This document shows positions 6,913-32,966 of a stretch of 64,000 nucleotides of DNA, in pieces. The notes under the pieces were generated by a model. It had not been told where the DNA came from. It saw only the letters and a list, made by a program, of their open reading frames with translations, and ran no database searches. The stretch comes from a virus (lineage: Duplodnaviria > Caudoviricetes), in IMG/VR virus record IMGVR_UViG_3300038345_000094, positions 38,258-102,257 of that record; one strand, given 5' to 3'. Position numbers and translations under genes: made by a program. Numbering within the stretch: the first letter of the stretch is position 1; every line of letters starts with the position of its first letter.

Positions 6913-7200
6913 ATGAAAAAATGGTCTGAACAGGAGATTGCAGCCTTGAGCAACTCCGTAGCCACTCATGGCTATTCCAAAGGTATCAGGGCATTCATCA
7001 ACAGCGCAGAGAATGGTTGCGGCCGCACTTTCTCGGCGTGTGAGTACATGCTTTACAAACAGGCTAAACAGCATCAGGTCGACGATGCTACAGTGCCTGT
7101 TGACGAGAAGCCTCAGATGCACAAGGTCGACGACGACACCAAACATGAAATGTCGTGGATCAAAAGTTTAATCTATAGGCTTTTCGGTTGTAAGTCATGA
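6913..7200 (+). CDS. hypothetical protein, possible Myb/SANT-like HTH
   Basis: KKWSEQE...GRTFSAC pattern. Confidence 0.55.
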   Translation: MKKWSEQEIAALSNSVATHGYSKGIRAFINSAENGCGRTFSACEYMLYKQAKQHQVDDATVPVDEKPQMHKVDDDTKHEMSWIKSLIYRLFGCKS

Positions 7201-8447
7201 ACATCACAGTTGTATCTTCTGAGGGTTACGGTCGGTTATATATCCATCAGACCCTCTTAGACTACATCAGTGGTAACACGCTTATAATCACGCGGAACAA
7301 CGAAACTCAACAGTCTTGGCGATTGTCAATCGTGTCTGCAAACAGCACACCAGACAACGTCCCAAAGAGAACACTTGATTCTATATTCCGAGAGTTCCAT
7401 TTCTTGAATGGATACGGAATGAATCCTGACGCGTATGATATCTCCACTCGTTTCTATGACAACGTTATTCTTGACGATGTCTGGATGGTTTATCAATCGG
7501 CAGTTATATCGACTTGGATTTCAAGAGTGAAAACCACAAATCCAGCGATAAACTTCATTGGAATCAGCGAAACGATAGGAGAATCTTACAAAACAAGGAT
7601 AGATCCAAGAATAACCGACATCGAATTAGTGTTTGCTTCAAGGTTAAAAGCTACCTTGGAAAGTAAGTTAGAGAATAAACCAATCAAGGCTCCGCAGCAT
7701 GTTCTTCATATCATAAAGAATGACATGTTGCACGACAAGACGATTCATTCGATTTCTTACTCTCCAAATGGAAAGCATTTTGCCTTGACTTCCTGCATCG
7801 ATATCGGCATCTTTGCTGAAGACATATTTGAGTTTAAAGACAGGGAAATCTCAGCGTTCGCTCCTATTCCAAGGTGTATAGACGAGCTTTACAAGGCGAT
7901 GAATCTATTATCTACGGCGATGACGTTCGACCCGTCTGCCGACAAGGGGAAAGCAATGGGATTCCTATCTTCGCAGTTAAACAGCTTATTGTTCTCGCTT
8001 GACAGACAGAACTTGACTAACAGCAAGTTATTGGATGCCATGCAAGTATCAATGAGAGACCAGAAGAATATTATTTTCTGTGACATCAAACAAAGCGATT
8101 TTCTTAGACAGTACACTAACTGGTATCTGAAGAGAAGATTCGGAGACCAGACATTAGGATTCGCGATTGATAGTTTCCTTAAAAAGAAATACTCAACGCT
8201 GTGTATTGAAGATCGTTCGTATGAGCCAACAGTAGAGATTCTGAAGGACTGCGATAACGTCTTGCTATTCGGTTCCAACAAGTATGACAGGAGTCTGATT
8301 TTGGACATCCACGCAAAAGCAAAGGGTGATCTGAATATCATTACTTTTGTCACGCCGAAAACCATTGATGAGTCTAATGTCCTCATGGCCGTTAAAGGCA
8401 TTGAGGATAATTCTCTCACCATCTTAACGCATGATTTATCATCTTGA
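7197..8447 (+). CDS. degenerate SF2 helicase-like protein
   Basis: Motif remnants in SF2 order: VVSSEGYGRL (I), VILDDVW (II), IGISETI (III), C-terminal IITFVTPKTIDE; Walker A Lys and DExH absent. Confidence 0.55.
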   Translation: MNITVVSSEGYGRLYIHQTLLDYISGNTLIITRNNETQQSWRLSIVSANSTPDNVPKRTLDSIFREFHFLNGYGMNPDAYDISTRFYDNVILDDVWMVYQSAVISTWISRVKTTNPAINFIGISETIGESYKTRIDPRITDIELVFASRLKATLESKLENKPIKAPQHVLHIIKNDMLHDKTIHSISYSPNGKHFALTSCIDIGIFAEDIFEFKDREISAFAPIPRCIDELYKAMNLLSTAMTFDPSADKGKAMGFLSSQLNSLLFSLDRQNLTNSKLLDAMQVSMRDQKNIIFCDIKQSDFLRQYTNWYLKRRFGDQTLGFAIDSFLKKKYSTLCIEDRSYEPTVEILKDCDNVLLFGSNKYDRSLILDIHAKAKGDLNIITFVTPKTIDESNVLMAVKGIEDNSLTILTHDLSS

Positions 8448-9030
8448 TTCGCGGCAGCTTTCAAGAGATGGGCTCTTCCTTGAAGATGTCCTTGCAATGC
8501 TCTTGATTAAGCACTGTTCGAATCTAAATTTACTGTTTGAAAGGCTTCTTGAAAAAGGACTTATCGAGAAGAACGCGAATATGAACGGCTCGTACTATCT
8601 GCCTGAAGGTGTCCTTCACGAGTTAGAAGATGCCATTCAACGCTGTGCACCGACCTCCTCGCAAGATGAGGTTATAGAAACGCTGGCTCGTAAAATGATT
8701 GCGATGTTCCCTACCGGCTTGAAGCCGGGCACTAGGCAGTCATGGCGCGGTAACATCAATGATATATCTCGCCGGTTGAGGAAATTCCAAGAGAGATATC
8801 CTCAATACCGGGTAGATAAAATCCTTGATGCAACCAAGCGATATGTCGAGTCGTTTAACGGCCAGTACGACTATATGAGAATCCTGAAGTATTTTATCTG
8901 GAAGGATGAAACCAAGTATAACGACGAAGGACACGGTTATATCGATTCCTATTCGGACTTGGCTAATTTCATAGAGAATGAAGATGCAGGTAAGCCATCG
9001 GAAGGCACAGATTTCGCGACTCTTGTCTAA
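8431..9030 (+). CDS. replication-module protein (putative initiator/helicase loader)
   Basis: wHTH-like N-terminus; TAATG-coupled to dnaB. Confidence 0.55.
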   Translation: MIYHLDSRQLSRDGLFLEDVLAMLLIKHCSNLNLLFERLLEKGLIEKNANMNGSYYLPEGVLHELEDAIQRCAPTSSQDEVIETLARKMIAMFPTGLKPGTRQSWRGNINDISRRLRKFQERYPQYRVDKILDATKRYVESFNGQYDYMRILKYFIWKDETKYNDEGHGYIDSYSDLANFIENEDAGKPSEGTDFATLV

Positions 9031-9193
9031 TGGGTTCACTGGTAGACAGGGTAATTGACGCACTTGAAGAGCGAAGGGAAAGATTAGAAAGCGGTCAAAT
9101 AAACTGCATACCGTCGCCATTCAAGAGATTTTCAAACAACTTCGTCGGGATAGAACAAGGTAAATACTATCTCGTATCTGCAGCAACTAAGGC
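9030..9193 (+). CDS. dnaB: DnaB-like replicative helicase, exon 1
   Basis: NCIPSPFKRF...GIEQGKYYLVSAATKA ends halfway through Walker A. Confidence 0.85.
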
Positions 9194-9231
9194 AAAAGTA
9201 AAGGTGTTATTAATTTCTTGTTAAATGCGTG

Positions 9232-9260
9232 TTGTAATTAAATAATATTTTGTATATTTG
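9232..9260 (+). promoter_or_regulatory. Bacteroidota sigma70-type promoter for the intron endonuclease
   Basis: TTG-N18-TATATTTG. Confidence 0.65.
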
Positions 9261-9276
9261 CAAAAATTATTTAATT

Positions 9277-10047
9277 ATGCAGAGTATAAAACAAAATCTT
9301 AAAAGAAGCGGTGTATATGTAATACTAAACAAGTTGAACAATCACCGCTATGTTGGAAGCAGTAAAAATATCTATAGTAGATTATTGAAGCATCGATCAT
9401 TACTTAGAACGGGTAAACACGAAAATTCTCATTTGCAAAACGCATGGGATAAATACACAGAATCAAATTTCGATTATGCGGTTTTGGAGTATTGTGAAAT
9501 AAATAAATTGTATGAAAGAGAACAATTTTTTATTGATACATTATCTCCAGAATACAATATCGCTCCACGTGCTGATTCTGCTGGATTTATTTCAGAAAAC
9601 ATGAGAAAAAATATGTCTATATCAAGAATTACTGGCATAAAAAACGGAAGTATTCCCAAGACGCACAATAAACCAATTTTTGTATACAATAAAAACGGGG
9701 AATTTGTCGGATATTGGGACTCAATTCGTAGTGCTTGTTTAGCTCTTAGAATAGACTATTCGTGTGTGCAAAGAGTAATAAAAGGCGAATATACACAAAC
9801 TTGCGGGTATAAATTCTTTTCCGAAAAACAAGACATCGTTGCTCCATTCAAAAAAGCAAAAGGCGAGCATGCAGTGCCAAGAAAAGTATTTGTATTCACT
9901 AGTGATGATGAAACGCTGAAATTTTACGGAATGGAAGAAGCCGCGAAATATTTCAATGTTACAATAAAGACACTTAGACAATATACTACTGGAAAACACA
10001 AATTTAAGAGAAAATATTATATAACATCGTATCTGCCGTGTGATTAA
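9277..10047 (+). CDS. GIY-YIG homing endonuclease with NUMOD1-like repeats
   Basis: SGVYVILN...YVGSS..IYSR..KH...HLQNAW...EREQ...YNI; AT-rich. Confidence 0.9.
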   Translation: MQSIKQNLKRSGVYVILNKLNNHRYVGSSKNIYSRLLKHRSLLRTGKHENSHLQNAWDKYTESNFDYAVLEYCEINKLYEREQFFIDTLSPEYNIAPRADSAGFISENMRKNMSISRITGIKNGSIPKTHNKPIFVYNKNGEFVGYWDSIRSACLALRIDYSCVQRVIKGEYTQTCGYKFFSEKQDIVAPFKKAKGEHAVPRKVFVFTSDDETLKFYGMEEAAKYFNVTIKTLRQYTTGKHKFKRKYYITSYLPCD

Positions 10048-10289
10048 GTAATTAATCATATTATAACTCCTGGATATCGTCGAAGGCTAAACGGAAACGC
10101 ATGCTAACTTGACGAGGCGAAGAGCTAATGACTCAGCCCAAGAGACTAAATACAGGAGCATCTTACTGGGATGAAGACATAGTCCAGACTACAAACAGTA
10201 TGATGGGTTTAATTCCCGTACTAGGCTAATGACCCGGTGAACGAGAAATCGTTAATGAAGATACTGGTGGTGAAAACCATAGTGGTACG

Positions 10290-10989
10290 AGGTAAGTCGC
10301 AGATTATGAACTACTTATTCCTGTATAATAGTATTTTCTATGCTTATAAACATCAGGATAAAGTTAGGCTAAGAATTCTGTATTACCCGCTTGAAGAGAC
10401 GCAAGAGGCAATCACAACTCGCTTTATGTGTTACTTGCTTTATGTGTTGTCTCACGGTGTTATCCGCAGATCTCCTACGGAATTGCGCTCTACAAAAGAG
10501 GACGATCCGATTGAACCGGAAGTGCTCGAATTGTTAAAGAGCGATACGTATCAATCGATACTGAATTTCTATGAAGATCATGTTACATTCCTGCCGGACC
10601 GAAACCCTACGGGTATTATGTATTCGGCCAAGAAGTACGCGGATAACAACGGGACGGAACACAAGAAGAAAGTCACCATAACGGATAGACATGGCGTAGT
10701 AGTAGACGAAAGAGAAGTCTTCGACTATTATGAACCAGCTGATTCCAACGAGTATGTGATGATCATTGTTGACCATATAAGTCTTATAGACACCGAACAG
10801 GGTAAAACCTTACGAGAGTGTATGAATATGCTTTCAGAGTATATGATGAGACTGAGAAATCGGTATAATTATATCCCTGTTATCATACAGCAGCAATCTC
10901 AGGAGACTCAGAGTCTTGAGGCTTTCAAGTTCAACAAGATCAGGCCAAGCGTTGCAGGTTTAGCAGACAGTAAATATCTTGCGAAGGAT
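10290..10989 (+). CDS. dnaB: DnaB-like replicative helicase, exon 2
   Basis: GKSQ, YYPLEE, IIVDHISLI (Walker B), IIQQQS, GLADSK. Confidence 0.88.
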
Positions 10990-11012
10990 TAATAACAATG
11001 TTTGTAATTGTG

Positions 11013-11043
11013 TTTGTTTATTTAAAAAGTTTTCTTATATTTG
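11013..11043 (+). promoter_or_regulatory. Bacteroidota sigma70-type promoter for the intron endonuclease
   Basis: TTTG-N19-TATATTTG. Confidence 0.75.
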
Positions 11044-11062
11044 CACCATAATTTTATAAGTT

Positions 11063-11884
11063 ATGGTACATTCAAAAATAAAAGAAAATTTAGAACTGTT
11101 CGAAAGGCTTTTCAACGACGGATTAAGCGATTATAAGATCGCAAAAATATTAGGTTTAAACCACGCTACGATATTTCAGTTTCGCAAAAAGCATGGATAC
11201 ATTAGAGACTCTCTTCGCACTGCAAAAGCAAGAGAATTAACTAATGTGGAAATGGAAGTAATAATTGGATCTTTACTTGGCGATGGAAATATGCGACGAA
11301 CCGGGAAGAATGCTTCGTTCTGTATTGGACATGGTCCTAAACAAAAGGACTACTGCTTCTACAAAACGAAACTTCTTGAAGATTTAGGCGCAAAATTTTC
11401 ATATTCTAAAAGAAAAGTTCCAGATAAGCGTAATGGGAAATTGTATGACACCTATTGGTGTAGAGTTGGTGCAAATCCAAACTTTAATCCAATCTATGAA
11501 GAGTTCTATAAGGACGGGAAAAAACATATTCCAATGGAATTAGTAAACAATTATTTCTCTCGTCTTTCATTGGCCATATTGTATATGGATGATGGAAATA
11601 AAACAGAGAATGGCTATACCATAGCGACTATGTGCTTTGATAGAGATGAGATAAATGAATTTAGAGCATTCTTGCTGTTAAAATTCAATTTAGAAACTTC
11701 TGTATTTGGTGATGGTCGTTTATATATTATGGCTAAAAGTGCTGATTTGTTTACCGATTTAATAAAAGAGTATGTTATAGACAGTATGCAATACAAACTT
11801 CATAGCAGTCCTTGTAAAACTGGGTTAAAAAGGGGAACTCCTGAAAAGGACAATCCTTTGCCAAGCTCTGATTTAAATGGTTAG
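11063..11884 (+). CDS. LAGLIDADG homing endonuclease with N-terminal HTH
   Basis: IIGSLLGDG and LAILYMDDG motifs. Confidence 0.9.
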   Translation: MVHSKIKENLELFERLFNDGLSDYKIAKILGLNHATIFQFRKKHGYIRDSLRTAKARELTNVEMEVIIGSLLGDGNMRRTGKNASFCIGHGPKQKDYCFYKTKLLEDLGAKFSYSKRKVPDKRNGKLYDTYWCRVGANPNFNPIYEEFYKDGKKHIPMELVNNYFSRLSLAILYMDDGNKTENGYTIATMCFDRDEINEFRAFLLLKFNLETSVFGDGRLYIMAKSADLFTDLIKEYVIDSMQYKLHSSPCKTGLKRGTPEKDNPLPSSDLNG

Positions 11885-12028
11885 AGAAGGCCAAACGACT
11901 AGGTGATGAAACTCAAATGAGAATATAATTCACCCACGAAATCCCAGCGCAGTGATGCGAAGATATAGTCTGAACTGCATAGTAATATGCAGAAGTAAAG
12001 GATAAAGAGCTTTTACGATAACATATTG

Positions 12029-12286
12029 TGTAATGTCATGCTGGGCGTAACCAATCCTTATGCCCACGAGCTGAAAGAGTATTTTGGCTATGATATTGCA
12101 AGACTAAAGGGTAGCATTAGATTTCTCGAATGTGTGATTAACCGTGACGGTGAAAGCAACGGGATAGTTGCCCTTTATTTCGACGGAGCAGTGAATTTCT
12201 TCACTGAAATGCCACCCCCGGACGATCTGGCGGGGATGGAAAAAGTCTATGCTATGATTCGCGATAGGGCGATTCGTAGATTATAG
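12029..12286 (+). CDS. dnaB: DnaB-like replicative helicase, exon 3
   Basis: CNVMLGVTNP...VINRDGE...LYFDGA; spliced product about 373 aa. Confidence 0.85.
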   Translation, partial: CNVMLGVTNPYAHELKEYFGYDIARLKGSIRFLECVINRDGESNGIVALYFDGAVNFFTEMPPPDDLAGMEKVYAMIRDRAIRRL

Positions 12287-14899: not shown

Positions 14900-15123
14900 A
14901 ATTTGGCGTTAGATTCCAAAAAATGTTCGCTATGTTTCCCGATATCGATCGTACAAAGATCGCACATAATCGGGTTACTAAGCTTACTCGGCCGGAGATG
15001 TATGAAATCCTTCGCGGGATGAAGGCATCCGGCATAAAGACACCAGCTCAGCCTACTCGTACTGGCTCTGAGGAGATGCGGTCTTTCATCTTCACGATAA
15101 TCGATAAGAACGTCTCCAAGTAA
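14896..15123 (+). CDS. small basic protein heading the ligase operon
   Basis: ATGA overlap with primase, TAATG overlap with the ATP-grasp gene. Confidence 0.65.
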   Translation: MKFGVRFQKMFAMFPDIDRTKIAHNRVTKLTRPEMYEILRGMKASGIKTPAQPTRTGSEEMRSFIFTIIDKNVSK

Positions 15124-22116: not shown

Positions 22117-23191
22117 TCGAAAATCAATCCTTGACATCGCCTGGAATGTGCCTGAAGAGACATATCGAAGCGACCCGTCGTATCACTATTCTTTGCTGTC
22201 AGATTTTCGAAATAAGGGCATTCATTTCGCGAATGAACTACTGAATCCACCCGAGGAGAGAAAGCCCTCCAAATCGCTTATTTTCGGGTCTCTCGTTGAT
22301 GCTATGCTTACCGACGAGAGTAAACTGGAGCAGTTCGAGAATATCGGCAGAGAAGAAGACGTAGTAAAACTCACGGCCACAGAGTTAAAGGTGGCAACAT
22401 ATATACTTGAGAACCAAGATTTCTTCCCGCTTCAATTATTGAAGACAGACTCTGGTATATTCTATCAATGTTTCGTCGATTGTGATGCATATACGACAAG
22501 TAAGCCTCAGACAATTCTTGACAAACACGGAGACAGAATACTTGATTATCTCGAGAAGTCTCTTGTGATAACTGGAGATAAATACCAAGTCACCGAGGAA
22601 GACTGGGTTGATGCGCTTGAATGCAAGGCAGCTATACTCGAATCATCAATGGGGAAGTACTTCAATGCTCTCCCGTTTGATGGTGATATTGAACGAGTGA
22701 ATCAGCTCAAGTTGAAATGGAGAGATCCGAAGACCGGAATCACTTATCGAGTGATGCTTGATAATGTCTATGTAGATCATGACAATAAGATAATCCAGCC
22801 TAATGATGTGAAGACGTCCTCTTCTTACGAGGACGAGTTTTACAATAGTTTCATCAAATGGAATTATGACATTCAGGCTAGATTATATTGGCGTGTCCTG
22901 TATAACATACTCAAGGAAGACCCGTATTTCAAGGACTTCACGATTCTACCATTCCAGTTCTTGGTTGTTTCAAGATATTCCAAAACGCCTATCATATGGC
23001 GTTACGACGATTGTGTAAAACCCGGAGAGCTTGTCTACCACAAGCGCAACGGAAGTGTGATCGTCCTCGAAGATCCTTTTGATATTGGATTCAGACTGCA
23101 GAAGGCAGCAGACAGAGCCTGTGCCATACAGGAAGGCATCTCTACCGTAAGCAGCAATCTGATTGAGTATTGGATCGAAAATGGCAGCTAA
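22109..23191 (+). CDS. PD-(D/E)XK exonuclease (RecE/DUF3799-like)
   Basis: FGSLVD, RVMLD, DVKTS, YDIQARLY. Confidence 0.8.
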   Translation: MASRKSILDIAWNVPEETYRSDPSYHYSLLSDFRNKGIHFANELLNPPEERKPSKSLIFGSLVDAMLTDESKLEQFENIGREEDVVKLTATELKVATYILENQDFFPLQLLKTDSGIFYQCFVDCDAYTTSKPQTILDKHGDRILDYLEKSLVITGDKYQVTEEDWVDALECKAAILESSMGKYFNALPFDGDIERVNQLKLKWRDPKTGITYRVMLDNVYVDHDNKIIQPNDVKTSSSYEDEFYNSFIKWNYDIQARLYWRVLYNILKEDPYFKDFTILPFQFLVVSRYSKTPIIWRYDDCVKPGELVYHKRNGSVIVLEDPFDIGFRLQKAADRACAIQEGISTVSSNLIEYWIENGS

Positions 23192-23850
23192 TGATTAAAT
23201 ACGTAACAAAACGAGACGGTAAAGTTCAGGAATTCACGAGTGATAAAATCCTCAATGCAATCAAGAAGGCTTTCAAGGAAGTCTTCGGTGATGAAGATGT
23301 ATCTGAGAAGATAAGTACCGCATTTGCGTCGGTAATGGCTAGGATTGAAAGCCTGCCAGACAAGACGCATATCGAGAAAATCCAAGATATCATTGAGGAG
23401 GAGCTCATACATACTGGACAACTCAATGTTGCGAGGAAGTTCATAGCTTACCGCAATCAGCGTAATCTCGCCAGAAAAGCAGACACTATCAAGATTTTCG
23501 ATAGTATCATTCAGGCACAAGCAAACGATATCACTAGAGAGAATGCGAATATGAACGCAGATACTCCCGCTGGTATGATGATGAAGTTTGCTTCTGAGAC
23601 AACTAAGACTTATGTCGATGAAGTACTCCTTTCACCGGATGTGGCTGATGCTGTGAAGAACAATATCATTCATATTCACGACAAGGATTACTATCCTACG
23701 AAGTCACTTACTTGTCTTCAGCATCCGCTTGATAGATTACTTAAGAACGGATTTGTTTGTGGGCATGGCGAGGCTAGACCAGCGAAACGAATAGAGACAG
23801 CTACTGCGCTTACAGAAGTGTCTCTGCAGGCCATACAAAATGAGATGCAT
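23191..23850 (+). CDS. nrdD: anaerobic ribonucleoside-triphosphate reductase, exon 1 (ATP-cone)
   Basis: VTKRDG ATP-cone, ENAN, IHIHDKDYY, TC, QNEMH. Confidence 0.92.
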
Positions 23851-23988
23851 AGATTACTGTGCATGCTATCAGTAATGATAGAAAAATATAAACGATGTGA
23901 ACCGGTTCATCAGCCGGGTGTGACGAAAGTTGCTAACGGGAGAAAAGCCCAATATCCCGTGCTAAGCTTCACTTTTTGTTGATTTTTC

Positions 23989-24019
23989 TTGCATATGTCA
24001 AATATTATTCTTATATTTG
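23989..24019 (+). promoter_or_regulatory. Bacteroidota sigma70-type promoter for the intron endonuclease
   Basis: TTG-N20-TATATTTG. Confidence 0.65.
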
Positions 24020-24023
24020 TATT

Positions 24024-24554
24024 ATGAAGAAAATTAATGAATTATTCAGTCTTGAATGGGCGTCAGATTGCTATTTTATTGACGATGATCTTAATATCGT
24101 TAATATAAAGACAGGTAATCTAAAATCGAAAACCATAGGGAAAAGAGGCTATTACTATGTTACCCTTAATAGAAGAGATGATAATAAACAAATTAAAGTA
24201 TATTATCATAAAATCGTAGCATTAGCCTTTATTCACAATGGACCATATGATGTGATTAATCACATAGATGGAAATAAATTAAACGACTCTGTTTCGAATT
24301 TAGAATTTTGTTCTCAGAAGCACAATGTACAACATGCTTTTAAGACAAAACTTGTGAATAGAAATGAGAAAAAGTTTTTAATTCGATTTTTAGATGGCGG
24401 TGAATGTGTAATGACAGCAAAAGACGCAAATAACATTATTGGTATCCCAAGGGTTACGTTATATGACTTATATTATAAGCATTCTCGTTCTCCTAAGTGG
24501 TCTATAGCTGAAGTAATAAGTGAAGAAAGTGTAGAGACTATCGAAAGCAAATAA
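24024..24554 (+). CDS. HNH homing endonuclease
   Basis: HKIVALAF...INHIDGNKLND..SNLEF...HNVQH. Confidence 0.88.
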   Translation: MKKINELFSLEWASDCYFIDDDLNIVNIKTGNLKSKTIGKRGYYYVTLNRRDDNKQIKVYYHKIVALAFIHNGPYDVINHIDGNKLNDSVSNLEFCSQKHNVQHAFKTKLVNRNEKKFLIRFLDGGECVMTAKDANNIIGIPRVTLYDLYYKHSRSPKWSIAEVISEESVETIESK

Positions 24555-24665
24555 CCGCATAAGGAGTTATTTGCAAGTAGAGTAGGACGGAGATGATGCC
24601 GTCCGAAGCGCATCGGGCCCTACGCGTGAAGGCGAGGGCTGTGAGATAGTCCATAAGAACCTATG

Positions 24666-26240
24666 GGTGGGCAATCTATTCCTGCAATTGATTTCTATCT
24701 TGCGCCGTTTGTGAAGATGGCATTCAAAGAAGAACTCAAGAAAATAGCGGAACTGTATCCCCATATACCTAAAGATGCATTCGTCAAGGAACTTGATGTT
24801 GATGTTAAGGAATACATAAAGAAAGAAGTCGATCCTAAGAGTTCTACACACGATATGATTATCCAGTATGCGATTAATCGTACCGTTGATAGGGTTCATC
24901 AGGCGATTGAAAGCTTTATCCATAATGCCAATATCATTCATTCTCGTGGCGGAAATCAGGTTGTATTCTCGTCGATTAACTTCGGTACAGATACATCACC
25001 TGAAGGTCGTTGCATCATCAGAGAGATTCTCAACTGTACTTATGAAGGAGTTGGTTTCGGTTCTACCGCAATCTTCCCGATTAGCATTCTGAAAATCAAA
25101 GATGGTGTCAATGTCAAGCCGGGTGATCCTAACTACGATCTGTTCAAGTTTGCCTGCAGGGTGACAGCAAAGCGCTTCTTCCCTAACTTCCTGAATCTCG
25201 ATGCTTCTTATAACGTCGATGATGCGTGGAAACCAGATGATCCGATGAGATATATGCATGAAGTCGCAACCATGGGTTGTAGAACTCGCGTGTATGGCAA
25301 TCTCTTCGGCCCTAAGACATCTGTCGGTAGAGGTAATCTTAGCTTCACTACTGTTAATATTGTTCGTCTTGCGCTGGAGTGTATGGATATCAAGGATAAA
25401 GAAGAGCGCATCAACGCATTCTTTCGCAAGTTCGATCTTGCCCTTGATATCGCGGCAAAACAGCTTAATGAGAGGTATAACTTCCAAGCCACTGGTGTTG
25501 CAAAACAATTCCCTATGCTTATGAGCGGAATGTGGCTTGGTAGTGAGAATCTCAAACCTGACGATCCAGTCGGTCCTGTGTTGAATCAAGGCACTCTGTC
25601 GATGGGATTCATTGGGCTGGCTGAATGCCTGATTGCACTCATTGGTAAGCACCACGGCGAAAGCGAAGAGGCTCAACAGCTTGGATTGAGTATTATCTCC
25701 CACATGAGAGAGAAAGTGGATGGCTATTCACAGAAGTATCAGCATAACTATACTCTTCTTGCCACTCCGGCAGAAGGACTTGCTGGGCGTTTCACGAAGA
25801 AAGATAGGCAAGTGTTCGGCTCCATTCCCGGAGTTACTGATAAGGATTACTATACTAATTCAAGCCATGTTCCTGTGTATTATAAGTGTACACCGGAGCA
25901 CAAGGCGAAGATTGAAGGGCCTTACCATAAGTACGAGAATGCTGGACATATCTTCTACGTGGAGATGAATGGTGATGCCACGCACAACCCTGAAGCGATT
26001 GAGCAGATTGTTTCGCTTATGAGGAAGTATGATATCGGTTACGGTTCTATCAACCACAACAGATATCGCTGCCTCGATTGTGGTTATGAAACTGCCACAA
26101 AAGATATGAAGGAATGCCCGCGTTGCGGTAGTAAGAATATTGATATGCTTCAGCGTATAACTGGCTATCTTGTTGGCACTACTAACCGCTGGAATTCCGG
26201 TAAACTCGCTGAATTGCGAGATAGAGTAACGCACGGATGA
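24666..26240 (+). CDS. nrdD: anaerobic ribonucleoside-triphosphate reductase, exon 2
   Basis: MGCRT, GRGNLSF, ATPAEG, YYTNS, two CxxC, QRITGYL glycyl-radical loop. Confidence 0.95.
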   Translation, partial: GGQSIPAIDFYLAPFVKMAFKEELKKIAELYPHIPKDAFVKELDVDVKEYIKKEVDPKSSTHDMIIQYAINRTVDRVHQAIESFIHNANIIHSRGGNQVVFSSINFGTDTSPEGRCIIREILNCTYEGVGFGSTAIFPISILKIKDGVNVKPGDPNYDLFKFACRVTAKRFFPNFLNLDASYNVDDAWKPDDPMRYMHEVATMGCRTRVYGNLFGPKTSVGRGNLSFTTVNIVRLALECMDIKDKEERINAFFRKFDLALDIAAKQLNERYNFQATGVAKQFPMLMSGMWLGSENLKPDDPVGPVLNQGTLSMGFIGLAECLIALIGKHHGESEEAQQLGLSIISHMREKVDGYSQKYQHNYTLLATPAEGLAGRFTKKDRQVFGSIPGVTDKDYYTNSSHVPVYYKCTPEHKAKIEGPYHKYENAGHIFYVEMNGDATHNPEAIEQIVSLMRKYDIGYGSINHNRYRCLDCGYETATKDMKECPRCGSKNIDMLQRITGYLVGTTNRWNSGKLAELRDRVTHG

Positions 26241-27022
26241 TAAAGAAGGCTCTCATTATACCAGATGTACATGGACGTAAGTTCTGGGAAGAAGCGAAAG
26301 AACTAATTAAAGACGAAACGATTGATAAAATCGTATTCCTCGGCGATTATTTCGATCCCTATGACGATGAGGAGGCATTCGTGAGTGATGATGATTGTAT
26401 TGCTTCATTCAGAGAGATCATCGAGTTCAAGAAGCAAAACCCTGATAAGGTTAAACTTCTGCTCGGCAATCACGATATACATTATCTGTATAAGAACGAG
26501 TATTGTTCTCGCCATAATGATGAACGCGAAGCTGAAATTTGCGATGTCATCAAAGGCGAACTGCTGAATCTCGATTTCACTTATATAGATGATATTGAGT
26601 GTAGCAATTATGACAAGGTGTTATTCACTCATGCTGGCCTCACGTCTAACTTCCTGAAGACACTTGGTAGGGCTGGATATGTCAAAGACGATCTTGTTGC
26701 ATTATGTAATAAGATAAACGCTGATATGAAAGTGACAAAGTCTCATGAGTATCACGTTTTATCCGAGCTTATGTTAAGAGTCTCTCACTTCCGTGGTGGT
26801 ATTTACCCAGACGGAAGTATCGTATGGGCGGACATAAGAGAAGTCGTACCGAACAGTTTTGATTTCAACAATGTATATCAGATTTTCGGTCATACTCGCT
26901 CGTTCTTCCCTACGATAATCAAGCGTTACGCCATGGTCGATACTATGGAATGCTATGTTGCCGACTTTGAGAATGGCAGCATAATCAATCTTGGTACTGG
27001 CAAACAATTTCCAATACAGTGA
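26237..27022 (+). CDS. calcineurin-like metallophosphoesterase
   Basis: PDVHG, GDYFD, GNHD, THAG, GHT. Confidence 0.9.
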   Translation: MIKKALIIPDVHGRKFWEEAKELIKDETIDKIVFLGDYFDPYDDEEAFVSDDDCIASFREIIEFKKQNPDKVKLLLGNHDIHYLYKNEYCSRHNDEREAEICDVIKGELLNLDFTYIDDIECSNYDKVLFTHAGLTSNFLKTLGRAGYVKDDLVALCNKINADMKVTKSHEYHVLSELMLRVSHFRGGIYPDGSIVWADIREVVPNSFDFNNVYQIFGHTRSFFPTIIKRYAMVDTMECYVADFENGSIINLGTGKQFPIQ

Positions 27023-27483
27023 AGATATACTACAAACGGCTTAAGGATGTAGAGCGCCCTAAAATCATTGATAAAGGCGACTGGATTGATCTCTATACTC
27101 CCAGAGAAGAAGACATCGATGTAAAAGCTGGAGAGATAATCAAAATCCCTCTTGGCATAGCGATGAAACTACCTCCGGGGATGGAGGCGATACTTGCATT
27201 CAGGAGTTCGACTTCCCAGAAGTACGATATCGGCCCCGCTAATGGTTTCGGTGTGATTGACCAAACCTATTGCGGCGATTCCGATGAATGGAAGTTCCCG
27301 ATTCGTGCCTTCTCGGATGTGACGATTCCTGTCAATGCGAGGTTATTCCAATTCCGCATTCAATTAAGTCAAAAAGCCACTATCTGGCAAAAGCTGATGT
27401 GGCTCTTCTCTCCCACGGTCAAACTTGTTGAAACCGAAGTTCTTGGCAATAAGAACAGAGGCGGATTCGGTTCGACTGGTTAG
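27019..27483 (+). CDS. dut: dUTPase (trimeric)
   Basis: WIDL, RSS, GVID.TY, NRGGFGSTG. Confidence 0.92.
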   Translation: MKIYYKRLKDVERPKIIDKGDWIDLYTPREEDIDVKAGEIIKIPLGIAMKLPPGMEAILAFRSSTSQKYDIGPANGFGVIDQTYCGDSDEWKFPIRAFSDVTIPVNARLFQFRIQLSQKATIWQKLMWLFSPTVKLVETEVLGNKNRGGFGSTG

Positions 27484-27521
27484 TAAAAAAAAGTCAAACA
27501 ACAGTTTTATTCACTTTCTAA

Positions 27522-27821
27522 ATGAGAAAACGAGTTAAACTGATGTCCCACGACAGAAGCAAAAACTATCTTGTGTTCGATAAGTTCGACAGCCGATTCG
27601 GACATGGGATTTATATCTTCAGATTAGTTACGGAGTTTCCAACTGTCCGCATTATTGGTTCTCCTAACAACCCTGAGGCAATAGATCCCAGTGGTGGTCC
27701 TATGCTCTCTCGTGGTGATACTACGATAATCCCAGGATTCGTACTGGATAGAATTGACTTTTCGAAAGAAGGATTTAGGTTGCACTTTAAATCGATCCGT
27801 AATGGTTCACCTCGTCGTTAA
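27522..27821 (+). CDS. hypothetical protein (IDPSGGP motif)
   Basis: 99-aa ORF. Confidence 0.65.
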   Translation: MRKRVKLMSHDRSKNYLVFDKFDSRFGHGIYIFRLVTEFPTVRIIGSPNNPEAIDPSGGPMLSRGDTTIIPGFVLDRIDFSKEGFRLHFKSIRNGSPRR

Positions 27822-29715
27822 CGATCCGTCTACGATGCCAGAGGTGGCTTTTGCCAAAATCACTCCAGCACAAGCAAAGTCTGCGTTGGTTGATGTGACG
27901 ACATTGGCAATAGACTTGAAAACAACCGGCCTCGATCCCTCGGAAGATGAGATAAAAGCAGTAACCATTGCCACACGAAAGGAAGAGATTTATATCTTGA
28001 CTACGGAGGTGATAAACAGTTCTTTGCTTATAGACCTATTGTCTGGAGCATATATAATTGTTAACTCCGGTCTGAAAGATATCTCTTTTCTTATGGCGAT
28101 GGGTGTTGATATCTCGAGTGTTTTCGATACCTGTCTGTGTGATCAGCTCTGCAATGCGAATGTTGACCAGATGAAGATATCTTATGAGCTTCCGGCAATT
28201 CTGAAGCGCTATAGCATCACTAACAGCTTTGCATTCTATGAGAATACTAACTTCTGGAAAGAAGGATTCAGTATGGGTGGGTGTAATTATCTGACGCTAT
28301 ATGTAAGACATCTGTTCGAATTGAGAGATAAGATTTATGAGGAACATCCTCAGTCATCGAATCTGTTTCTCATGATGAATCGGATGTTGCTTATGGCGGC
28401 ACAGATGAATATCACTCCACTCAAGCTGGACAGACAGAAGATACAGGATGCTTCGAATAACCTCTTGGAGGAAATCTGCGCTTCTGAGGCGAACTTCCTT
28501 GAGATCTTCCAAGCGTTAGGGAAGTATCCGGAATCGCTGAAACAGGAGCTCTCGCTGCCTGATTACAACGAGAAGATAACTCCCCTGTTTGACATCGACG
28601 ACCCGGATGAAATCGCGAAGTACATCGACTCTATCGATTACGAATCTGCAGCAGATGCCGCATATGAGAGTGGTCTCATAGACTCCCTGCCAAGTCTTCA
28701 GATGTTTGATGATTATGCAGATCAAGTCAGGATGTACAACGATGTTTACAGAAAACTCGTTGCGCAGAAATCCGACGACTTGTATTCGCATTTCATTCCG
28801 ATGTCTACGAAGTCTCTTGGCATTCAGGGTGTCACTGGATTTCCTTGTCCTACGAAGGCTAGGAATCAAAAGATCAATCCTTTCTTGGCTACTACGATCA
28901 ATCCATATCATTTGTTTGGAGAAGATGTCTTCAACTATGATGATGGCGAATTGAGACTTGTAGAGATAGAAGATGTGGAGATATTCGGCCTTGGTGTACT
29001 CACCAACGACGCTCATACCATCAGATTTGCATCTAACAGATCTGTTGAAGTGGGCTATCTCATTGATGAGTTAGAAGCAAAAGGCGTAAAGTTTCACTCC
29101 GTCAAGGGTGTTGAAGCGCTTGCTGGAAATATCCTTCGAAGTGGGTGCAAACTATCCGACCACGAGATGATCCGCTCTTCTATCGAGAAAGAGAGTGTCC
29201 CGGAATTCCTTAAGGTCTTCTCTCAGCGATATTATCATACCGTAGAAGCGATAAGTGGTCTGATTAAACGAATTCAGCACTATGGTAACGCCATGATCTT
29301 TTCTGAATATGAACTCAATTGGGAGAATTTTCAGTGGACGAACATGGTTGGAACCAAACTCACAACTGAATTCTGGCAGACTTACGAGCCGCACAGACAA
29401 GCAAAGGATGAAGTCTATCAAGAGGTCACTCAGTATTACAAAGAGCACGGGCTCGTTCAGTCCGTAGTAAGAAAACTCGTGATAAACTATGCGAGAATGT
29501 TCGTTATGTCTCACACGATGTTTGCTTATTTCGATGCGATACGAGAGGAGAATCTTGGTCAGACCATACGACTTGCCGCTGGCGATTATAATTCCTTCGT
29601 TTTGGAATATCCGCCAATCATGGCATCTGCACTTGACGACATCGAGGCGACTGTCAAAGCGTCACTCGTTCGTAGATTTGGAGAAAACATACCAATAACT
29701 TCAACGATAATCTAG
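27802..29715 (+). CDS. degenerate family A DNA polymerase homologue (predicted inactive)
   Basis: ExoI DLKTTGLDP (E to K); ExoIII without Asp; motif A region VEIEDVEIFGL and motif C region GDYNSFVLE lack the consensus residues; likely start 27802. Confidence 0.7.
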   Translation: MVHLVVNDPSTMPEVAFAKITPAQAKSALVDVTTLAIDLKTTGLDPSEDEIKAVTIATRKEEIYILTTEVINSSLLIDLLSGAYIIVNSGLKDISFLMAMGVDISSVFDTCLCDQLCNANVDQMKISYELPAILKRYSITNSFAFYENTNFWKEGFSMGGCNYLTLYVRHLFELRDKIYEEHPQSSNLFLMMNRMLLMAAQMNITPLKLDRQKIQDASNNLLEEICASEANFLEIFQALGKYPESLKQELSLPDYNEKITPLFDIDDPDEIAKYIDSIDYESAADAAYESGLIDSLPSLQMFDDYADQVRMYNDVYRKLVAQKSDDLYSHFIPMSTKSLGIQGVTGFPCPTKARNQKINPFLATTINPYHLFGEDVFNYDDGELRLVEIEDVEIFGLGVLTNDAHTIRFASNRSVEVGYLIDELEAKGVKFHSVKGVEALAGNILRSGCKLSDHEMIRSSIEKESVPEFLKVFSQRYYHTVEAISGLIKRIQHYGNAMIFSEYELNWENFQWTNMVGTKLTTEFWQTYEPHRQAKDEVYQEVTQYYKEHGLVQSVVRKLVINYARMFVMSHTMFAYFDAIREENLGQTIRLAAGDYNSFVLEYPPIMASALDDIEATVKASLVRRFGENIPITSTII

Positions 29716-29716
29716 A

Positions 29717-30568
29717 ATGTACGATCCTGCAAAAATTATTTTCGAATTTGACGACCTCGCCATATGTCCGGAGATGAGAAACTCCGACAGGCGAATCGCC
29801 GTCGACAAGAATTCCGTACGTCAGAAGAACGATAAGTCTAGGTTCCTCATTACCCTCAGGGATGCGAAAGACATCCCCGAGACGGCGAAGGACACCAAGA
29901 ATACCTATATCGCAGTCTTCGACGATATCGGATTACTCACGAGTCTCTTGACGAGCGAAAACATCACGAATATCATCCCCCAATATAATGTTCGTGACCT
30001 CCTCGTTCACAAGGACAAAATATTGAACGAGCTTACAGAAAGCAAAGACAAGTTCAATATTGTCATCAATATCGGAGCAAATATGGGCGACCTGTTCTTG
30101 CTTCACTCCCTGTCTAGTAAGGAAATCCTTGCGCAGTTTAATGTCATTTATCGCGTCTACGGAAGCGATGATGCCGTTATCTCCTGCGTGGTAGACATGG
30201 GAGGCGTTGGTATTATCGTCGACAGGAAGATCGATACTCTTCCTCTTGCTACATCGGCGTCGGTGATAGCCAAATGCACGAACACAATTAACAATATTAT
30301 CGGTTCTGAGCCGAGATATGTTGATTTGTTCGAGAAGACCAAGAATGCTGTCGTTCACGTCTTATCCGATTATGACGAGAAAGATCCTCTTGCTATCAAG
30401 TCTGTAGCGCTCGGGTCTAAGTTTATCGTTCTCGATATGCCAATCGACAAGGCTCACGAAACGATAACTAAGGTAGAGAATGCCTGGCTTAAAGTTCTTG
30501 AGTTCATCAACTCCAATAACTTTAACGACATCTTTTGTAGTGTAAAGCTGGGGCTGATATCCAAGTAG
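29717..30568 (+). CDS. degenerate GMP reductase/IMPDH-like protein
   Basis: FEFDDLAICP and IKSVALGSKFIVL resemble LTFDDVLLVP and KALALGADFVML; no GIGPGSxC loop. Confidence 0.5.
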   Translation: MYDPAKIIFEFDDLAICPEMRNSDRRIAVDKNSVRQKNDKSRFLITLRDAKDIPETAKDTKNTYIAVFDDIGLLTSLLTSENITNIIPQYNVRDLLVHKDKILNELTESKDKFNIVINIGANMGDLFLLHSLSSKEILAQFNVIYRVYGSDDAVISCVVDMGGVGIIVDRKIDTLPLATSASVIAKCTNTINNIIGSEPRYVDLFEKTKNAVVHVLSDYDEKDPLAIKSVALGSKFIVLDMPIDKAHETITKVENAWLKVLEFINSNNFNDIFCSVKLGLISK

Positions 30569-30594
30569 GTGTCAGCCCACAAAAGCTTTTCACC

Positions 30595-31074
30595 ATGAAA
30601 GAAGTTATTATTCTGAGGGGTCTGCCGTTTAGTGGCAAGACTACATGGGCTCAAAAGCTAAAGCACCGGAATGACGATTTTGTTATATTTAATGTAACAG
30701 AAGAGAGAGAAAAGGTGTTGTCAGATAACAATACATTAAGTAAGGCAGATGTGTGGAAAGCCGTAATGGAGAAATTCATTTTCGTGCTTATCAACAGCAA
30801 GGCTGTTATTATCGACGATGAGAATATCTTGGCTTCTACGATCCTTCGACTGTTGTTCGTCATTAACGAAAACGCTAACGTTATTGAAGAGCATATAAAG
30901 TTAAGGATTAAGAGCATCGCGACTCCGTGGAGTGTCTGCTTGAAGAGAGCAGAAGAAAGCGGATGTAGCGAAAGTGATATCCGAGTCTTGAATTCGTATT
31001 ACAGCTACTGCCTAAAACGAAACATTATTTACAGTGATGAAAAAGACAGCAAAACAGATCTACAAATACATTAA
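30595..31074 (+). CDS. P-loop kinase (AAA_33 / polynucleotide kinase-like)
   Basis: ILRGLPFSGKTTWA, VIIDDEN, TPWSVCLKR. Confidence 0.75.
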   Translation: MKEVIILRGLPFSGKTTWAQKLKHRNDDFVIFNVTEEREKVLSDNNTLSKADVWKAVMEKFIFVLINSKAVIIDDENILASTILRLLFVINENANVIEEHIKLRIKSIATPWSVCLKRAEESGCSESDIRVLNSYYSYCLKRNIIYSDEKDSKTDLQIH

Positions 31075-31276
31075 GTCCCAGCCTTGGTTCCGGGAATACG
31101 TATATGAGATTCATAACAGCGACGTCCTCGACGAGAAGAAGACGATGGAATATATCAATGGTTTAGGAGACTTCTATACCATTACCGGAGCCTTCGACTG
31201 GACGAAGACGAACGCTGGCTATGAGAAATGGGAAGAACGCAACAACCAGTTCATACGCTGGTATGACCGTAACTAG
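31034..31276 (+). CDS. hypothetical protein with FxWxxTxxGxxxW motif
   Basis: AFDWTKTNAGYEKW. Confidence 0.65.
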   Translation: MMKKTAKQIYKYIKSQPWFREYVYEIHNSDVLDEKKTMEYINGLGDFYTITGAFDWTKTNAGYEKWEERNNQFIRWYDRN

Positions 31277-31278
31277 CG

Positions 31279-32106
31279 ATGAGTCTATTATTCCTTTATG
31301 CAATAAAGAATCCACTTATGTCAGGGTGCGGCTATTCTCCTTCGAGGAACAACAGGTCGCGCTCCGACTCTCGGCCATTCAGTAGTACAGACGTTCGGAG
31401 AATCCTTGAATTTTTCAAGTTCTTCGTACCAGAATCTTCAGCTTTGGCGTGGTTTATCGAGAATTTCCGCGATCAACATACTTCTCGTGGAACGACGATG
31501 AATTCGTTTTGCACAGATACTGCAAGATTAATCGTTTCTCACGGAGCTAATTGGTTCGAACATCTTTATTTCAGTATTACTGGAATTGAAAGAGTTCGTA
31601 CCGTGTTGGGCTTTATTAGCTCGAGATATACATCAGATGTCATCAATATCGCATACAACTGGTCAAGCACTCCGCAAGGCCACGAGTATTGGTATGAGAT
31701 TAACACGATGCTTTCTGAGTATCTCAATATGGCTAATAGTTTGCCAACACCATCATATCTCCGCGACATGAATGATATCGCTCAGTATGCACGGGCAATA
31801 GCGTCGCATCGTCGACGTTTGACGGATCATTTCATCGCGCCAGAACAGCCACGGCAACAAACAGTCTCTGATGTTAACGGCAGACTCGACCAGCTTGCCC
31901 AAGAAGTAAGAGGTGCTGCTGAAGAAAGAACTCGCAGAAACAGAGGCGCTATTCGTATAGAACATCGCACTGATGGTGATTACTATATCAATCCAGACGG
32001 GGATGAGATTCAGATAACCATGCCGGAAGTTCGTCCGGTTCAACCGACAACTGTTGGCAGCACGTGGTTTACTATATCCGACTCTTTCGACGTTACTAGT
32101 CACTAA
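31279..32106 (+). CDS. hypothetical protein with YxWxxTxxGxxxW motif
   Basis: AYNWSSTPQGHEYW. Confidence 0.7.
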   Translation: MSLLFLYAIKNPLMSGCGYSPSRNNRSRSDSRPFSSTDVRRILEFFKFFVPESSALAWFIENFRDQHTSRGTTMNSFCTDTARLIVSHGANWFEHLYFSITGIERVRTVLGFISSRYTSDVINIAYNWSSTPQGHEYWYEINTMLSEYLNMANSLPTPSYLRDMNDIAQYARAIASHRRRLTDHFIAPEQPRQQTVSDVNGRLDQLAQEVRGAAEERTRRNRGAIRIEHRTDGDYYINPDGDEIQITMPEVRPVQPTTVGSTWFTISDSFDVTSH

Positions 32107-32111
32107 TCAGT

Positions 32112-32966
32112 ATGGATATAACGCAAGTAACTAAATGGTCACGAGCGTTAAAAGCAGCAAGGCGTACCCAAGGCAAGGAAGATAACGGTAAGGAACCTTC
32201 TAAGTCTTGGGTCGCCAAGATGCTTTTGGCCGAACATTCTCCGATTCGTCTTGTCGAATATGAGTGGGTATGGGAATCCATCAAACAATGGGTCACCGTG
32301 CATCTCGTACGACATTTCCTCGGGTGTGAGAAGTTCGTCCATTCACAACGACAAGACCGTAGAGAGCTAGAAGTACCGAGAGATGAGTTACCGCAAGGTG
32401 CGGAGAATGATATGATGATGTCTGCTAACGCGCAGGCATTAATCAACATCTCCAGAAAGCGCCTCTGCTCGTGTGCGTCTCCTGAAACTCGTGCGAAGTG
32501 GCAAGAAGTAAAGGATGCTATGTGGGAAATTGATCCTATCATGGCGTCCAGAATGGTGCCTGAGTGTCAATATCGTGGATTCTGCCCGGAGTTTATGAAA
32601 GACAACTGTGGGTTTTATATGTCTCAAGCGTATATCCTGCAGCGACTGGACTACTGTAGCAAATGTCAACCACAGAGGTGGGCGAAAATAGATGATTCTT
32701 GCTTCTGGATATCAGACAATGGTGTCGTCATCGACGATGAGCGCCACGAAAAACTGACTGAAGATACTTATGTTTTCTTCCGAGAAAGCCCCGTTAAGTA
32801 TCGGATGTCAGGAACTGTTATCTTTGTGCAAATCGGAAGTACGTATTATCCTGTTGCTCATATCATGTGCAAGTCATTCGGTGTTAGATGGGCTCACGAA
32901 CTGAAAAATAGCAATCCGTTCGACCTGTCATTAACCAACGTGTGTGTGAATGAGGGGGGCCAGTAA
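32112..32966 (+). CDS. thyX: FAD-dependent thymidylate synthase with C-terminal extension
   Basis: AEHSPIR, HLVRH...SQR, NAQALINISRKRLC, CPE. Confidence 0.8.
   Translation: MDITQVTKWSRALKAARRTQGKEDNGKEPSKSWVAKMLLAEHSPIRLVEYEWVWESIKQWVTVHLVRHFLGCEKFVHSQRQDRRELEVPRDELPQGAENDMMMSANAQALINISRKRLCSCASPETRAKWQEVKDAMWEIDPIMASRMVPECQYRGFCPEFMKDNCGFYMSQAYILQRLDYCSKCQPQRWAKIDDSCFWISDNGVVIDDERHEKLTEDTYVFFRESPVKYRMSGTVIFVQIGSTYYPVAHIMCKSFGVRWAHELKNSNPFDLSLTNVCVNEGGQ

Follow-up and report, generated by a model that had tools for sequence, protein, structure and literature searches.

IMG/VR record IMGVR_UViG_3300038345_000094 is a viral genome of 102,257 bp with direct terminal repeats that is rated complete, and the 64,000-nucleotide stretch analysed here, referred to below as the window, comprises its bases 38258-102257. 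Between 7 and 33 kb of the window, the plus strand carries a replication and nucleotide-metabolism module that encodes a DnaB-like helicase, primase, NrdD, dUTPase, ThyX, and a deoxynucleoside monophosphate (dNMP)-kinase-like protein, together with the three genes that are the main subject of this work: a polymerase-like gene, an SF2/SNF2-like gene, and an IMPDH/GMPR-like gene. Upstream of the window lie genes for a Crassvirus major capsid protein (Pfam Crass_capsid, E 2e-170), a P22-like portal, and terminase. The nearest annotated relatives of the replication genes are those of Steigviridae crAss-like phages and of 'Bajarodcaudo virus 1' (Bajarodcaudo below), and near-identical DNA is present in bovine and sheep gut metagenomes from many studies. 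The source is a complete 102-kb crAss-like phage of the ruminant gut, a member of the Crassvirales nearest to the Steigviridae.

The crAss-like phages rank with the most abundant viruses of the gut. Exchanges between their family A and family B polymerases are unusually frequent. These phages swap PolA and PolB in situ, and a few members from outside the human gut, as well as the epsilon group, have no recognisable DNA polymerase (Yutin et al. 2021, PMC7886860). A sequence-only reading of the window had proposed that four homologues of replication enzymes, an SF2 helicase, a PolA, a GMP reductase/IMPDH, and an HNH-like tail on ThyX, keep long open frames and have lost their catalytic motifs. 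The coordinates and open frames given in that reading are right: 7197-8447 (416 amino acids, aa), 27802-29715 (637 aa), 29717-30568 (283 aa), and 32112-32966 (284 aa). Here, we describe the folds, motif states, synteny, and conservation of these proteins, using as relatives two compared syntenic loci, L004 and L005, and gut metagenome runs, among them X3 and X23. The genes concerned and their flanking anchors are as follows.

7197..8447, plus strand: 416-aa protein of SF2/SNF2 fold, ATPase motifs degenerate, in the position held by the SNF2 helicase of crAss phages (AlphaFold2, Foldseek, and synteny)
8431..9030, plus strand: conserved 199-aa protein, synteny anchor of the helicase slot (29% identity, E 1e-19 to 7e-21, to the Bajarodcaudo 199-aa gene between the SNF2-like and DnaB-like genes)
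27522..27821, plus strand: 99-aa gene directly 5' of the polymerase-like gene, synteny anchor (33% identity to the Bajarodcaudo 89-aa gene directly upstream of PolA; kept in L004 and L005)
27802..29715, plus strand: protein of family A DNA polymerase fold (exonuclease, thumb, palm, fingers) with a non-canonical active site (637 aa; AlphaFold2, Foldseek, and hhalign)
29717..30568, plus strand: putative IMPDH/GMPR-superfamily TIM-barrel-like protein without the catalytic Cys loop (283 aa; starts 2 nt after the stop of the polymerase-like gene)

Divergent proteins in the PolA and SNF2 slots

The order of genes in Bajarodcaudo, SNF2-like ATPase, 199-aa gene, DnaB-like helicase, and AAA protein, is also that of the window, where the last three are recognisable orthologues. 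In both genomes the PolA slot follows dUTPase and a small conserved open reading frame (ORF) and precedes ThyX. The two slots hold an intact SNF2-like ATPase and an intact PolA in Bajarodcaudo; the genes that flank them in the window are 29-46% identical to their Bajarodcaudo counterparts, and the slots themselves give no BLAST match. The polymerase-like and SF2-like genes occupy the syntenic PolA and SNF2 slots of relatives whose own versions are active.

A large protein search recovered 11 homologues of the polymerase-like protein, 632-646 aa in length and 34-96% identical to it, and in the resulting 12-sequence alignment the homologues use the same start ATG that had been assigned from the sequence. 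The AlphaFold2 model has a mean predicted local distance difference test score (pLDDT) of 87 and a predicted template modelling score (pTM) of 0.85. Foldseek aligned it with the apicoplast PolA (apPol), Klenow, and Bst polymerases over the full length, with approximately 640-700 columns, E-values of 1e-17 to 1e-14, and template modelling (TM) scores of 0.57-0.68, and hhalign matched the family alignment to seven crAss PolAs over 611 columns (probability 94, E 1.5e-7). Because the full-length structural matches and the profile comparison with crAss PolAs agree, the proposed PolA homology holds, and it is the fold that bears it out: the protein has no match to Pfam DNA_pol_A (PF00476) even at E 10 and none in PHROGs, its PDB match covers only residues 43-206, as a DnaQ-type exonuclease (E 2e-9), tblastn of the polymerase-like and SF2-like proteins against 50,697 phage records returned nothing, and IMG/VR scans with the polymerase-like protein and with the IMPDH-like alignment found no relatives. 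The Steigviridae PolAs (the Bajarodcaudo 'Prex DNA polymerase' and the DNA polymerase I of the phiCrAss001 type) have the same slot and domain order.

The SF2 assignment at 7197 is likewise borne out, here by fold only. The protein gave nothing in Pfam (including Helicase_C and ResIII), PHROGs, or a single-sequence PDB search, and when 1.84 billion representatives were scanned with its profile, just seven relatives emerged, which apart from one 49-aa fragment are 408-429 aa long. An AlphaFold2 model built from nine sequences has a pLDDT of 79.5, and the best 50 Foldseek matches listed are all ATPase cores of SF2/SNF2 type, with SNF2 remodellers first (E 6e-6 to 1e-4, probability near 1); they include Chd1, ISWI, SsoRad54, RIG-I, Hef, and XPB. 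Global TM scores are low, 0.22-0.32, as would be expected if the two lobes of the model are oriented differently from those of the templates. The Bajarodcaudo protein in the same slot, a 379-aa 'chromatin remodeling complex ATPase', shares the two-lobe fold and, as judged by eye and by a weak hhalign match, the order of motif-bearing segments.

The third gene is coupled to the polymerase-like gene, and the pair is also adjacent in L004 and L005. Its assignment as GMP reductase/IMPDH is weakly supported by lines of evidence that agree with one another, and the product is probably a barrel of the IMPDH/GMPR superfamily. The best PDB profile match is the GuaB3-type IMPDH-related protein 2qr6 (E 0.01 over 115 residues); an N-terminal FDDLxxxP is present, with KxxALG close to the C-terminus; the top Atlas feature matches, which serve as leads only, all belong to PF00478 (scores 0.77-0.79) and many are viral; and the Atlas model (pLDDT 0.57) resembles TIM barrels (TM 0.5-0.57). 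The protein itself has no Pfam PF00478 match, and PHROGs returned nothing useful.

Motif states and conservation

In the SF2-like family the sequence at the site of motif I is not conserved among nine relatives (GYGRL, GFGKP, DIAFR, and others), motif II reads LD(D/N)VW or (L/V)E(D/E/N)xx, with LDDVW in the window protein, and the segment corresponding to motif VI (QxxGRxxR) has no conserved arginines. Motif register was set by colinearity with the Bajarodcaudo protein, which has GMGKT, DEMQH, SAT, and QRVGRILR; the corresponding segments of the window protein read GYGRL, DDVWM, and SET, and its arginine finger is missing. The claimed motif loss is therefore confirmed for motifs I, II, and VI, which are degenerate and unconserved. 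Since the P-loop is unconserved, the case for loss of catalysis is strong, and an ATPase-dead SF2 fold is a well-supported prediction from the alignment and model. The most conserved part of the family is a C-terminal segment, T.DESNV...HDLSS (window 8268-8447), which is invariant in nine relatives down to 26% identity; it is an addition relative to the Bajarodcaudo ATPase and may be a docking motif.

For the polymerase-like protein, residue equivalences were taken from hhalign and predicted secondary structure. crAss PolAs pass the Pfam DNA_pol_A and exo1 models and have DxE, DYxxQE, RxxAK..F..Y, and HDE, whereas the window protein has none of these as such. In the exonuclease domain, DxE of ExoI has become D54-x-K56 (D54-L-K56 in the window protein, with both residues invariant) and YxxxD of ExoIII has become YxxxY (YLTLY); the Asp of ExoII is retained (D109). 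The column of the catalytic Asp of motif A (DYSQIELR) holds Glu in 11 of the 12 sequences (E404) and Ser in the other, in a register in which hhalign agrees with the ungapped alignment derived from D419, an Asp that matches the template downstream; the motif A Glu is matched by E409, which eight of the 12 keep. In motif B, the O-helix (R...K...F...YG), hhalign aligns the Arg with E454, the Lys with G458, and the Tyr with S463, and a three-residue deletion at the Phe position leaves the helix shorter by three residues; the Lys column is K or R in seven of the 12 relatives and Gly in the window protein. The His and Glu of HDE are absent from motif C, and D611, the first residue after the hairpin strand 606-610, is invariant in all 12. 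By this comparison the exonuclease site and the O-helix appear to be gone, and two carboxylates are left at what are predicted to be metal-ligand positions. The PolA motif loss claimed for this gene stands for the exonuclease DxE and YxxxD and for motif B, and acidic residues persist at the presumed positions of motifs A and C. With Glu and Asp at the presumed metal-ligand positions of the sole polymerase homologue found, the protein may still be catalytic.

The canonical motifs of IMPDH and GMPR are the Cys loop GIGPGSICTT and the phosphate-binding DGG...GD. In the IMPDH-like family the Cys-loop segment is an invariant GIIVDR (GIIVDRK), with no Cys, as had been claimed; DYD stands in place of DGG, and DP in place of GD. 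Protein 2qr6 also lacks a cysteine in the stretch that aligns with the GIIVDR region, where it reads GGGENTNS, and the Atlas neighbours include viral PF00478 clusters of 179-298 aa as well as GuaB3 clusters. The closest known proteins are thus of GuaB3 type or are short IMPDH/GMPR-domain proteins of phages. The window family differs from both in having no PF00478 match, DYD for DGG, and its own invariant GIIVDR. Canonical IMPDH/GMPR chemistry is likely to be absent. The abundance of charged residues that never vary hints at a new ligand or reaction and not simply at a scaffolding role.

Conservation of the three genes was assessed at several distances. Full-length relatives of each protein persist down to 26-47% identity (26-98% overall), and new invariant motifs distinguish each of the three families. 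Four independent gut runs yielded contigs, diverged by approximately 5% in nucleotide sequence, that cross 24820-32990 without an indel within genes. Stretches that no contig covers, and low word shares in the run search, did not enter into the conclusions. Relatives that are 96-98% identical differ at 23 of 637 residues in the polymerase-like protein, six to ten of 283 in the IMPDH-like protein, and eight of 416 in the SF2-like protein, a 2-4% change that is mostly conservative. Provided that the polymerase-like and IMPDH-like genes share the divergence of their region, their ratio of nonsynonymous to synonymous divergence (omega) is roughly 0.05-0.1; the SF2-like gene lies outside the covered stretch. 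The comparison of substitution rates among relatives that had been proposed as a check is informative in this rough form only. Against L004 and L005 synonymous sites are saturated, and the NG86 proportions of nonsynonymous differences (pN) are bounds, all far below saturation: the polymerase-like gene gives 0.38-0.45 and the IMPDH-like gene 0.28-0.43. Identity to the same two loci is 34-45% for the polymerase-like protein and 65-89% for NrdD, dUTPase, and phosphoesterase; the polymerase-like and IMPDH-like proteins together, at 34-55%, are faster-evolving than their neighbours. The three genes, as well as the ThyX tail described below, are under purifying selection and are not decaying pseudogenes. 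In this respect the sequence-only reading was right on both counts: selection keeps the folds, and ordinary decay does not account for frames that are open and full length at saturated synonymous divergence.

We then asked whether the complete genome encodes active counterparts of these proteins. A six-frame Pfam search of the whole genome found no PolA, PolB, protein-primed PolB, Pol III alpha, PrimPol, Helicase_C, ResIII, or IMPDH, and as far as profile searches see there are no active paralogues. The one exception is an exonuclease gene approximately 7 kb before the start of the window.

Genome 30377-31303, minus strand: stand-alone DnaQ-like exonuclease (phrog_403 'DNA polymerase exonuclease subunit', E 3e-94)

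It has an intact DEDDy site (DTE, HNxxxxD, YNKND) and is 56% identical to its counterpart in Bacteroides phage DAC15. A 1042-aa ORF beside it was considered as a hidden polymerase and rejected; it has no Pfam, PHROG, or PDB match, and tblastn gave only short matches to 'transmembrane' and 'regulator' proteins.

Interpretation of the remodelled proteins

We propose that in a small clade the genes in the SNF2 and PolA slots are far more diverged than the other genes of the replication module, with the folds retained and the canonical catalytic signatures lost, and that an IMPDH/GMPR barrel without the Cys is coupled to the polymerase-like gene. The three proteins would be functional, with changed chemistry, and kept by purifying selection; that they are functional and not dying follows from this selection and from the new clade-specific invariant motifs. 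The SF2-like protein could serve as a non-ATPase structural or regulatory part of the replisome, and the IMPDH-like barrel might have acquired a new ligand or reaction. The polymerase-like protein would either be a very derived polymerase or have little or no activity; in the latter case it would act as a scaffold of the replisome, and copying of the DNA would fall to a host polymerase. Taken as a whole, this explanation, lineage-specific pseudoenzymes or re-purposed proteins that selection has kept in ancestral slots, seems to us to have about an even chance of being correct. As to the earlier assertion that the folds persist without catalysis, the case for the SF2-like protein is strong, and loss of canonical IMPDH chemistry is likely; the polymerase, with E404 and D611, may be active or inactive.

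Several points weigh against this explanation. A phage with its own DnaB-like helicase, primase, NrdD, dUTPase, ThyX, dNMP-kinase-like protein, and DnaQ would be expected to have a working polymerase, and the only candidate is the protein encoded at 27802-29715. This protein has carboxylates at both presumed metal-ligand positions, and the Glu of motif A is matched in most of its relatives. The two placements of motif C differ by two residues, hhalign setting the template Asp at the variable N613. The estimate of omega assumes that the regional nucleotide divergence holds for each gene. Finally, replacement in situ by a distant homologue is indistinguishable here from divergence in place.

In one alternative, the proteins are active and very derived enzymes, and the PolA-fold protein is the replicative polymerase, with a Glu (motif A) and Asp (motif C) metal pair and remodelled fingers; the DnaQ protein would proofread in trans, and an arms race, perhaps with host defences that target the polymerase, would account for the fast divergence. 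We regard this as possible, at rather less than an even chance. It accommodates the presence of a single polymerase homologue in a complete genome whose replication module is otherwise full, the state of E404, D611, and E409, the K or R found at the motif B Lys in seven sequences, the intact DEDDy exonuclease encoded elsewhere in the genome, and the purifying selection. Escape of crAss polymerases from defence has been proposed (PMC7886860), and the divergent phage polymerases divPolA1 and divPolA2, which occur beside a regular DNA polymerase and have a dead or missing exonuclease and a conserved palm (Virol J 2024, PMC11348598), provide a precedent. Like the window protein, they are PolA-fold proteins of phages that are barely recognised by sequence profiles, were found via structure prediction, and have an inactivated or missing 3'-5' exonuclease. 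The window protein differs from them in being the only DNA polymerase homologue of its genome, in occupying the regular crAss PolA slot, in its motif A Glu, and in the loss of motif B. Several features speak against this alternative. The palm motifs of the window protein are non-canonical, unlike those of divPolA1; equivalents of the motif B Arg, Lys, Phe, and Tyr are all missing from it, in a shorter helix; one relative has Ser at the motif A position; and the gene evolves much faster than its neighbours. Moreover, a derived polymerase leaves unexplained an SF2-like protein with an unconserved P-loop.

The inactive state that our preferred explanation allows for the polymerase has parallels in family B. 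Inactivated polymerase-exonuclease modules of that family are the C-terminal half of eukaryotic Pol epsilon (PMC2669801) and the PolB fused to helicases in Polinton-like viruses (PMC5499653), and in each of these systems an active polymerase is present as well; as there, the window protein would represent a polymerase fold under selection after the loss of catalytic residues, presumably for assembly of a replication complex. It differs in belonging to family A and in that its inactivity is a prediction from motifs. What appears to be new with respect to the known divergent phage PolAs is the combination of a non-canonical palm with no regular DNA polymerase found alongside.

Besides scaffolds, the sequence-only reading suggested that the inactive folds might be kept as decoys, by which host defences able to sense the replication proteins of phages would be misled, or as dominant-negative regulators, taken here as inhibitors of host enzymes. 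The proteins are indeed conserved yet fast-evolving, with their canonical motifs lost, and Bacteroidota defences have been speculated to target crAss polymerases (PMC7886860), which favours such a role indirectly. A decoy, however, presupposes an active original, and none was found in the genome; the genes sit in ancestral slots and are not extra copies, and no context of defence or anti-defence genes was seen. We found no support for decoy or dominant-negative roles and judge them very improbable. We give just as little credence to a version in which the polymerase, SNF2 helicase, and IMPDH-like protein turned catalytically dead together, as a set that binds and neutralises or misleads host factors (for example, enzymes of host nucleotide metabolism and replication, or sensors by which defences perceive the replication proteins of phages) while a host polymerase synthesises the DNA. 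Lastly, pseudogene decay or mis-called ORFs, with chance-open frames and spurious homologies, can be set aside almost entirely: three of the four proteins have no match in Pfam or PHROGs, and the tblastn search of phage records with two of them was empty, but the models are confident and match specific folds, full-length homologues persist at saturated synonymous divergence, four diverged populations show no indels, and amino acid change is about one fifth or less of the neutral expectation.

In one ruminant clade at least, the polymerase slot is not empty and holds a conserved PolA-fold protein with remodelled catalytic motifs. If this protein polymerises, its family A active site would lack a canonical O-helix and have Glu in motif A. 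If it is inactive, a phage with its own helicase, primase, and exonuclease would replicate with a dead, structural polymerase and must borrow the host enzyme. Either outcome would bear on the fast turnover of polymerases in this virus order.

ThyX, interrupted neighbours, and other features of the genome

The remaining genes that entered into the original proposal are ThyX, whose tail had been counted among the eroded enzymes, and the DnaB-like and NrdD genes, which had been described as intact.

9036..12286, plus strand: DnaB-like helicase in three exons, approximately 9036-9194, 10258-10989, and 12032-12286 (tblastn of the 403-aa Bajarodcaudo helicase)
9250-10047: GIY-YIG ORF in the first DnaB-like insert (Pfam GIY-YIG), which lies inside the P-loop (Walker A) codons
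11063-11884: LAGLIDADG ORF in the second DnaB-like insert (Pfam LAGLIDADG_2)
23170..26240, plus strand: NrdD, split after codon 227 by an 815-nt insert (23851-24665) with an HNH_3 ORF (23976-24554); the halves match Pfam NRDD 1-103 and 104-562
32112..32633, plus strand: ThyX (Thy1) core, residues 1-174, the best-conserved gene of the module (Pfam Thy1; 73% identity to Bajarodcaudo ThyX, 91% to L004)
32634..32966, plus strand: ThyX C-terminal tail, residues 175-284, a possible NUMOD4/HNH_3-like module (Atlas lead only)

The ThyX core scores 35.1 bits against Pfam Thy1 (cut-off 24.8), with only the C-terminal third of the profile matched, and the 73% identity to the 193-aa Bajarodcaudo ThyX extends over residues 6-174; a single-sequence PDB search gave nothing. 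Aligned by eye, the motif RHRxxSxxxxSxR reads RHFLGCEKFVHSQR (RHH... in a relative), in which the first Arg-His and SxR persist, another residue replaces Arg at the third position, and the length exceeds that of the motif by one. The tail is absent from Bajarodcaudo and present in L004 at 65% identity. Because pN is 0.22 in that comparison and the proportion of synonymous differences is saturated at 0.86, we conclude that the tail is kept by selection. Its description as HNH-like gained little: it has no Pfam match at E 10 and no PHROG match, BLAST finds no similarity to the window's own intact HNH and hhalign gives a probability of 0.3, and what is left is a language-model lead, Atlas neighbours at approximately 0.8 in HNH_3/NUMOD4 clusters that include Thy1-HNH fusions. 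By eye, a colinear pattern WAK..FWISDNG / AHELKNSNPFDLSLTN can be followed, with a His and two Asn that are all conserved in L004. The tail is an extra conserved domain at a homing-endonuclease hot spot and not an eroded replication enzyme; no single explanation covers the four cases.

Codon 64/65 of ThyX (window 32303-32325), just 5' of the conserved LVRH motif, is an insertion hot spot. L004 carries a GIY-YIG-bearing insert between codons 64 and 65 (L004 11461-12459), and run X3 has an insert of approximately 1 kb at the same codons, the start of which resembles the NrdD HNH element.

The description of DnaB and NrdD as intact must be revised, given the three exons of the one and the HNH-bearing insert of the other. 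Rfam identifies a group I intron in the second DnaB-like insert (11751-11992, 64.5 bits), and when 7000-33200 was scanned with Rfam by E-value, no other intron model appeared, in the NrdD insert or elsewhere. The upstream NrdD exon ends in T and the insert in G, as in group I introns, and the downstream half has its own ATG; judged from these features, the insert may be a spliced intron or the gene may be truly split. The insert is missing from L005, which has an unsplit NrdD of 745 aa, and from a contig of X23, which joins 23850 to 24675 with nine letters between. The HNH ORF is 98% identical to that of L004 with a synonymous divergence (dS) of 0.105, and because the flanking NrdD is saturated, the ORF has moved recently, which points to recent homing. 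Run X3 carries a 724-nt insert near NrdD codon 501 (window 26164-26167), and L004 has approximately 790 nt extra in the same place (4441-5230), an indication of a second site for mobile inserts close to the glycyl-radical end of the protein.

Phage genes interrupted by homing elements include td and nrdD of T4, with their introns, and nrdA of Aeh1, which is split by mobE. Some crAss-like groups are intron-rich (PMC7886860). Here, HNH, GIY-YIG, or LAGLIDADG ORFs lie at conserved sites in NrdD, the DnaB-like gene, and, in relatives, ThyX, and the inserts show presence/absence polymorphism. The likeness to homing elements concerns these neighbours, with one insert confirmed by Rfam as group I, and the ThyX tail, and not the three proteins without motifs.

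Three further features of the genome were recorded. A tRNA at window 3878-3952 is called by ARAGORN as a UAA suppressor (anticodon UUA) and can alternatively be folded into a tRNA-Lys (UUU) in which positions 27 and 43 mismatch and the variable loop has 6 nt. Use of TAA as a sense codon was considered and rejected; it neither joins nor meaningfully lengthens large genes, and TAA is the commonest stop. Between the primase and a DUF1064 gene, window 15123-21288 holds genes for an ATP-grasp protein, a phiEco32-type COOH-NH2 ligase, an Amidoligase_2 protein, and two glutamine amidotransferases, none of which has a counterpart in the compared part (42050-98608) of the syntenic Bajarodcaudo genome; the cluster looks like a lineage-specific insert. 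A tyrosine recombinase/integrase (phrog_1, Phage_int_SAM_5) is encoded on the minus strand of this crAss-like genome at 32537-33535.

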